The notes below the pieces were generated by a model. The model searched no databases and had not been told where the DNA came from. It worked only from the letters and a program-made list of their open reading frames with translations. The translations under genes were made by a program, and so were the position numbers. From Pseudomonadota bacterium (GTDB lineage: Bacteria; Pseudomonadota; Gammaproteobacteria; Coxiellales; Coxiellaceae), in the NCBI GenBank assembly GCA_018241585.1, contig JAFEDN010000480.1:1-58023 (forward strand): a stretch of DNA of 58,023 bases, read 5' to 3'. Each line of letters begins with the position of its first letter. The first letter of the stretch is position 1. Positions 31,007 through 31,327 of the stretch are shown piece by piece.

Positions 31007-31097
31007 AATTTTTATACCTTTATTACCTATAAATTTAATTTTTTATCGAAATAATACCAAACCTATATTAAATAAAGATTAACTAGCACGCTCCATT

Positions 31098-31280
31098 CAG
31101 CAGTTCCCGCTGAAGCAAAAATTACCTATAAATTCATGAAACATTGAAAAACCTATCCCGATGAGGGATCGCAAGGGAGAGGAGAGCGGTAGCGACCTTT
31201 CCCTTCATTACTGAGTTCCGGCTTTGCCGGAGCTCAGTATCCAAACCAGGAAGCAGCTCTCGCTTCAGCGGGAGCTGCTG
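31098..31280 (+). mobile_element. MITE copy B (183 bp) carrying the core hairpin modules
   Basis: 19-bp TIRs CAGCAGTTCCCGCTGAAGC (31098..31116) and GCTTCAGCGGGAGCTGCTG (31262..31280), 18/19 complementary. Flanked by a perfect 9-bp direct repeat CGCTCCATT (31089..31097 and 31281..31289). Confidence 0.9.
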
Positions 31281-31327
31281 CGCTCCATTGCTAACACTAG
31301 GTATTTGGTGCAAAATATTTTTTCGAT

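Follow-up and report, generated by a model that had tools for sequence, protein, structure and literature searches.

The closest described system to the repeat family considered here is QMITE2 of Coxiella burnetii, a miniature inverted-repeat transposable element (MITE) of 150-190 bp with terminal inverted repeats (TIRs) of 17-31 bp, a palindromic core and unique flanking direct repeats that mostly measure 9 bp (range 7-11 bp; PMC5896051, Wachter et al. 2018). Short versions of QMITE2 lacking TIRs and target-site duplications (TSDs) are more numerous and have been proposed to be truncated relics; the sites are intergenic or at the ends of genes, the family is reported to be ancient and fixed, a small RNA arises from it, and its parent transposase has not been identified (PMC5896051). 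A similar design is found in a 58,023-bp stretch of an uncultured gammaproteobacterium (contig JAFEDN010000480.1 of assembly GCA_018241585.1; the window hereafter). Two non-coding elements of the window, copy B (31098..31280, 183 bp) and copy F (54028..54245, 218 bp), carry 19-bp TIRs and perfect 9-bp TSDs, and very probably are copies of a non-autonomous DNA transposon, i.e., a MITE, mobilized in trans by an enzyme encoded outside the window. MITEs are commonplace in a survey of 183,232 genomes, and literal searches of the literature with the core and end motif sequences returned nothing relevant; the family, abundant in uncultured Coxiella and Legionella relatives, is apparently undescribed, a new MITE family of an ordinary kind of bacterial mobile DNA.

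Correia elements of Neisseria and MITEAba12 of Acinetobacter (PMC10969869) also resemble this family in being non-coding sequences of 100-400 bp with TIRs and a TSD, present in dozens to hundreds of copies with stable predicted folds, and inserted between genes with possible effects on the neighbours. Their sequences are unrelated to the present one, and the TSD is 9 bp here, whereas it is TA in Correia elements. Also unlike them, the present element closes on the right with a hairpin in which the end sequence occurs a third time, and no parent insertion sequence (IS) is known.

The ends of copy B are CAGCAGTTCCCGCTGAAGC (left TIR, 31098..31116, plus strand) and GCTTCAGCGGGAGCTGCTG (right TIR, 31262..31280, plus strand), whose arms are complementary at 18 of 19 positions, and the nonamer CGCTCCATT stands on both sides of the element (31089..31097 and 31281..31289). 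With its TSDs, copy F spans 54019..54254 on the plus strand, and the nonamer GTTAAACCT (54019..54027 and 54246..54254) is likewise perfect and different from that of B. The coordinates, TIRs and flanks given for both copies in an initial annotation of the window can all be read as described there. That annotation also assigned the same TIRs to F as to B, which holds for the right end (GCTTCAGCGGGAGCTGCTG, ending at 54245), whereas the left TIR of F, CAGCAGTCCCCACTGAAGC, differs from that of B at 2 positions. When up to 3 mismatches are allowed, the 19-mer occurs 6 times in the window and not at all (0) in 100 shuffles. Over their right-hand 135 bp, B and F share 97% identity, consistent with the near-identity previously noted, and their left-hand parts are unequal in length. 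This identity, together with the perfect TSDs, indicates that B and F were inserted fairly recently in the lineage. Both copies sit between divergent genes, F between those for a 240-aa open reading frame (ORF) and ftsE.

A third copy, E (52062..52216; 52053..52225 with flanks), lies on the minus strand, in the orientation opposite to B and F. Its flanks, AATGTTTTC and AATTTTTTA, agree at 7 of 9 positions, and E is a decayed member, as previously recognized; the earlier list of only three copies falls short of the approximately 10 family loci that repeat finding and BLAST reveal in the 58-kb window. Elements range from 155 to 218 bp. The absence of coding capacity also stands: neither B nor F contains a plausible ORF, and all element-confined ORFs are at most 62 aa. 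A mechanically called 263-aa ORF (54169..54960, TTG start) begins within F, but is discounted as coding capacity of F: it extends ftsE on the upstream side, and the ftsE homology begins downstream of F.

Related copies were collected from the genome CAWCIY01, from a metagenome scan with the core motif, and from syntenic contigs reached by look-ups of flanking proteins. CAWCIY01, a related metagenome-assembled genome, was found among the listed matches of a genome-collection scan with a degenerate 19-mer; most matches of that scan were chance occurrences in GC-rich genomes, as the motif resembles GC-rich codons. The metagenome scan yielded about 24 true family members. Perfect 9-bp TSDs flank copies in CAWCIY01 (L097, ATGGAAATG; L005, GCAATTGTT), in the metagenome Ga0187783 (L126, CAGGGTTGT; L137, TCAGCTAAT; L118, TAGATTGTA; L139, CAATCTCCA) and in contig L151 (ERZ25039482 contig_110736; ATAAGTCAT, GCAGGACAG and CAACACGGA). 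Together with those of B and F, these nine bring the total to 11, from the window and four other metagenomic sources, and no two are alike. At any one fixed boundary, a 9-bp match would arise by chance with a probability of about 4e-6. Near-perfect flanks are seen at L123 (8/9 positions), and the flanks of a fourth L151 copy are one base apart, GTCCGGA(A)C. Copies without a left TIR have no flanking repeat. Since the nonamers at full-size copies are perfect and all 11 differ, they represent target duplications rather than a part of the conserved element, and these TSDs, with the 97% identity of B and F, uphold the initial proposal of real, fairly recent transposition in trans.

Some copies have unusual flanks. 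In L139 (~9460..9670), the perfect TSD CAATCTCCA is kept though the terminal hairpin and the right TIR are absent, which suggests precise loss of the palindrome after insertion. The copy at ~2800..3010 of L120 has no 9-bp TSD; in its place stands an imperfect direct repeat of about 30 bp. One TSD of L151 differs by a single A within a short run. In the same contig, acrB, an outer-membrane efflux gene, lptD and pdxA are each called as several fragments, which are probably due to frameshift errors of long-read assembly and not real pseudogenes.

Comparison of syntenic regions indicates that insertion sites vary among relatives. L005 is collinear with the 53-58 kb part of the window, and the spacer between the 240-aa ORF and ftsE contains a full-size copy in both, F in the window and L005b in L005, in opposite orientations. 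F and L005b are independent insertions, F with a perfect TSD and L005b without one. Two insertion sites of L005 carry no element in the window. Relatives also vary at the parE-EamA junction: the two genes are directly adjacent, with no element, in L098; a 116-aa ORF separates them in L150 and an effector-like gene for a U-box protein does so in L151; in the window (28452..31328), copy B and a 160-aa orphan ORF lie between them. Family density is about 10 loci per 58 kb in the window and 5 in 22 kb of L151, and dozens of loci occur elsewhere.

In the family alignment, the order from 5' to 3' is left TIR, spacer, core module 1, core module 2, ATCnnAACCAGGAAGCA and terminal hairpin. The left TIR has the consensus CAGnnnTTCCCGCTGA, conserved in copies from five sources. 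The spacer is optional, AT-rich and variable in length, and usually ends in the box ATAATTTTCGTAGAAAAACC; that of B (31117..31151, plus strand) is shorter than in F and other full-size copies and has lost the box. The structured core of about 110 bp is built of hairpin modules. Core module 1 reads CCYGATGAGGGATCGCAAGGGAGAGG...CCTTTCCCTTCATT across the family and, in B (31152..31208, plus strand), CCTATCCCGATGAGGGATCGCAAGGGAGAGG...CCTTTCCCTTCATT, comprising a small hairpin and a longer one (AAGGGAGAGG / CCTTTCCCTT). Core module 2 of B (31209..31239, plus strand) is a hairpin of 13-14 bp with a TTT loop (ACTGAGTTCCGGC TTT GCCGGAGCTCAGT); across the family this hairpin of about 13 bp differs in sequence among copies and retains its pairing. 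The terminal hairpin of B (31252..31280, plus strand) reads AGCAGCTCtCGC-TTCA-GCGGGAGCTGCT(G), or AGCAGCTCtCGC-TTCA-GCGGGAGCTGCTG in the version of the family alignment, and its outer 3' arm is the right TIR. As the left TIR and both arms of the terminal hairpin carry the end sequence, this sequence is present three times in each full-size copy.

Two further forms are distinguished. Short copies begin at core module 1 and include the terminal hairpin, but have no left TIR, spacer or TSD. A compact subfamily, to which E belongs, is devoid of the spacer and has a left end that is itself a hairpin (CAGGAGTTCCCGCTGAAGGGAACTC); its members outside the window are found in L118, L123, L136 and L151. 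The terminal hairpin unit is tandemly duplicated at 35313..35462 of the window and in L036. A minus-strand copy of L134 in the metagenome Ga0187783 (core motif at 2303..2322) carries a GC-rich insert of about 85 bp in the loop of the second hairpin, which may be a nested insertion of another small repeat.

The predicted fold of B has an energy of -93.5 kcal/mol (z = -10.5), and that of the complementary strand is weaker (-87 kcal/mol). In a structure test using an alignment of 14 diverse copies, the consensus consists of three hairpins plus the terminal hairpin. In this consensus, 95% of cells pair and 14 of 31 pairs have changed on both sides, values which none of 500 shuffles reached (0/500), and sliding the partners by 1-3 columns reduces pairing to only 37-52%. 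Changes on both sides occur in 4 of 6 pairs of helix 5 (core module 2) and in 6 of 12 pairs of helix 6 (terminal hairpin). The pairing, the two-sided changes and the shuffle and slide controls show that the hairpins are maintained, whether through selection acting on the structure of the RNA or DNA or through repair inside the palindromes.

On the simplest account, transposition of the family would proceed as follows. A transposase of the DDE type, whose gene lies in another part of the genome, would bind both ends of the element, cut the target with a 9-bp stagger and join the element to it, and gap repair would then produce the 9-bp direct repeats. Short copies would most likely be 5'-truncated or decayed relics that persist at gene ends, where they resemble repetitive extragenic palindromes (REPs); their hairpins may be tolerated or useful in transcripts.

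Several observations weigh against transposition in trans of a MITE. Neither the window nor about 400 kb of related-genome DNA yielded an autonomous element with these ends, or a transposon-sized pair of matching ends with a TSD, and the mobilizing transposase is therefore deduced and not seen. Three two-ended copies (L005b, L117 and L122) have no recognizable TSD. No base-level empty site was demonstrable, since protein identity to the nearest genomes is limited to about 75-86%. In addition, most members are short and have no TIRs, and cut-and-paste transposition of the full-size form leaves their spread unexplained; the short copies may have a separate, REP-like mode of spread.

The only transposase domain detected in the window ORFs scanned against Pfam or NCBIfam (most, not all, of those of at least 90 aa) belongs to an intact IS1380-family element (9469..11057) located between a helix-turn-helix-domain gene and a UPF0093/CopD-like gene. 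Its transposase is 396 aa, encoded on the minus strand (PF13701, E = 6e-147), and the element has 13-bp ends (CCCGGATATTTCA) and the 4-bp TSD TTAT. As the initial annotation also concluded, this element is rejected as the driver or parent of the MITE, its ends being unrelated and its TSD 4 bp rather than 9 bp. An IS256-family element in L100 is rejected as the parent on the basis of unrelated ends. A Pfam scan of 86 long ORFs of the related loci found no transposase family in two or more ORFs (families in single ORFs were not listed). A scan of viral contigs with a 17-mer end gave nine chance matches without family content, and a distant BLAST search of a plasmid collection with the B region gave no match. 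Termini of the type 5'-CAG...CTG-3' with a TSD of 8-10 bp would presumably point to an IS4-like or ISAs1-like transposase in the ISfinder classification, which we take only as a lead.

Two possible explanations concern the likeness to QMITE2. The element might be a sequence homologue of QMITE2 in a Coxiella strain or a close relative: both families are non-coding, about 150-220 bp long, with TIRs of about 20 bp, mostly 9-bp direct repeats, a structured palindromic core, few full-size and many short REP-like copies, and intergenic or gene-end sites, and the hosts are related, C. burnetii providing the best named ParE (72% identity) and sharing the waaA-parE gene order with the window. For comparison, the groEL and parE regions of C. 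burnetii (L101-L104 and L153; about 55 kb in all), with several QMITE2 copies, were used; the groEL region was located with a C. burnetii GroEL query, whose top match had 100% identity. A full-size QMITE2 copy (L102:20025..20195) has the TSD CGCGCCAAC, which is GTTGGCGCG in Table 1 of PMC5896051. The TIRs read from this copy and from L101:~331..428 are GGGTGCGATTGAAAGTGTAGGTT / AACCTACACTTTCAATCGCACCC (GGGTGCGATTGAAAGTGTAGG...; GGGTGCGATTG...), and the core is one long GTAG-tagged palindrome (AGTAGCCCGTATGAGCGAAGCGAAATACGGG...CCCGTATTTCGCTTCGCTCATACGGGCTACT), which in L101 reads AGTAGCCCGTATG...CATACGGGCTACT with IS1111 inserted. Shortly downstream of groEL, a GTAG palindrome is interrupted by an IS1111 copy (L101:11690..13160). 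BLAST of B, F and short copies against these C. burnetii loci gave no E value below 0.1, and the reverse search was negative; the TIRs (GGGTGCGATTGAAAGTGTAGGTT vs CAGCAGTTCCCGCTGAAGC) and the cores are unrelated, the TSDs of B and F are absent from Table 1 of PMC5896051, and no window protein exceeds 75-86% identity to any on record. Homology to QMITE2 is thus most improbable, and the comparison with QMITE elements that had been recommended in the initial annotation yields neither family membership nor shared sequence. At the level of sequence comparison, the family is analogous, not homologous, to QMITE2, sharing its design and not its sequence. It further differs from QMITE2 in having three to four shorter hairpins instead of a single long GTAG palindrome, in that no IS1111-type/IS110-family insertion is seen in any copy, whereas QMITE2 is an IS1111 target, and in that its copies look recently active (97% identity, perfect TSDs). 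The other explanation starts from the common plan of the two families, i.e., TIRs of about 20 bp, a 9-bp TSD, a hairpin-rich core and many short copies without TIRs: one transposase type, possibly a stand-alone or domesticated gene and not a classical IS, would repeatedly mobilize structured intergenic RNA or DNA modules in both lineages of the Coxiella/Legionella neighbourhood, with the triple end sequence aiding recognition and the present family still active. This is a rather unlikely, speculative proposal. As QMITE2 ends begin GGG...CCC, the transposase of QMITE2 is probably different from that acting on the window family.

Other explanations emphasize the hairpins rather than the ends. 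REPs and bacterial interspersed mosaic elements (BIMEs; Di Nocera et al. 2013, PMC3733652) likewise are intergenic mosaics of hairpin modules with high copy number, located at gene 3' ends, with stems kept by compensatory change. If the family were of this type, its spread would be due to recombination or to the tyrosine transposase associated with REPs, and the full-size form would be secondary. The tandem terminal hairpin units (35313..35462 and L036), the compensatory changes, and the predominance of short copies without TIRs and TSDs just past stop codons are as expected for REPs; unlike REPs, however, full-size copies here have TIRs, with 11 perfect 9-bp TSDs placed exactly at the TIR boundaries. 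Tyrosine HUH transposases are not known to make such 9-bp TSDs. Moreover, no conserved GTAG/CGTC tag abuts the palindromes, GTAG being present only in the spacer box of some copies, and no gene for a tyrosine (Y1) transposase is found in the scanned window ORFs. A REP/BIME nature of the whole family is accordingly improbable, and it may still hold for the spread of the short copies. Somewhat easier to entertain, if still doubtful, is the idea that the core is mainly a functional RNA module (a small RNA, transcript stabilizer or terminator) and that mobility is secondary. The strong structural conservation with covariation points in this direction, as do the better fold of the given strand (-93.5 vs -87 kcal/mol), the several helix mismatches that are G-T wobbles on the plus strand, the location of short copies directly downstream of genes and mostly co-oriented with them, and the small RNA that arises from QMITE2 in C. 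burnetii. Yet no Rfam family matches at gathering or permissive thresholds, no T-tract terminator is present on the plus strand of the elements, B and F lie between divergent genes and not in 3' untranslated regions, and covariation in palindromes can arise at the DNA level too. An RNA function would also be compatible with the MITE interpretation, as an added layer.

Besides the full-size copies B, F and E, the family loci of the window are shorter copies, fragments or a solo end, and every family locus of the window is intergenic or extends into the final codons of a gene. Most window copies are short and have neither a left TIR nor a TSD. A short copy between prfA and prmC (7631..7769, plus strand) consists of the core and the terminal hairpin, without left TIR, spacer or TSD, and another (35313..35462, plus strand), with an additional hairpin unit ahead of the terminal hairpin, directly follows the stop codon of a 442-aa ORF and precedes lptD. 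Fragments include one with only core module 1 between a PIN-domain gene and tolC (14250..14313, minus strand), a decayed one overlapping the end of rsmA (40788..40860, plus strand) and a core module 1 fragment adjoining E (52251..52289, minus strand). The solo right end AATTCAGCGGGAATTGCTG (56809..56827, plus strand), an exact match to the family consensus, is located at the stop codon of an M48 peptidase gene, and a short or composite copy upstream of this gene (57871..58023, minus strand) continues past the window end.

Judging from protein identities to known relatives (EamA and ParE), the host is an uncultured gammaproteobacterium near Coxiellaceae and Legionellales, and the window does not derive from C. 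burnetii. The EamA transporter adjoining B has no homologue above 75% identity; its close relatives are all metagenomic, and identity to named Legionella proteins is about 45%. For ParE, metagenomic relatives reach 83-86%, and C. burnetii, the best named match (72%), is followed by Coxiellaceae/Legionellales metagenome-assembled genomes at 70-72%. The two proteins flanking B have no exact match on record. The window is an ordinary housekeeping stretch with prs, lolB, hemA, prfA, prmC, hemL, tolC, genes for a resistance-nodulation-division efflux pump, waaA, parE, murU, amgK, lptD, surA, pdxA, rsmA, arc genes, rpiA, ftsY, ftsE and ftsX.

Other features of the window are as follows. A 630-aa eukaryote-like Ser/Thr kinase (15991..17883), weakly similar to LegK1, an effector kinase of the Dot/Icm system of Legionella, and to a kinase of a defence system, fits a host-associated lifestyle. 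A pair of type VI secretion amidase effector and immunity proteins, Tae4 (PF14113) and Tai4 (PF16695), is encoded at 47271..48181 between an amino-acid permease gene and arginine deiminase genes, and no genes for a type VI secretion apparatus are present in the window. At 43041..43363, about ten tandem units of 33 bp, which share 62-88% identity with the reference copy, lie within an ORF for a 207-aa repeat protein (42952..43575, minus strand), which has only a weak apolipoprotein-like helical-repeat match.

The general understanding of MITEs is unchanged by this family. With it, a poorly known group of uncultured and probably host-associated gammaproteobacteria gains a MITE family that is well defined and apparently still active, and its copies with their unique TSDs could be used as strain markers. 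It also offers a clean test case for the class of transposase that makes 9-bp TSDs in this neighbourhood, a question left from QMITE2. Signs of recent activity in several uncultured genomes make this question testable, and if the tentative idea of a single transposase type is true, what moves QMITE2-like elements would become testable as well. At a density of about one copy in every 5-6 kb, it must have an influence on the intergenic regions, promoters and transcript 3' ends of its host.

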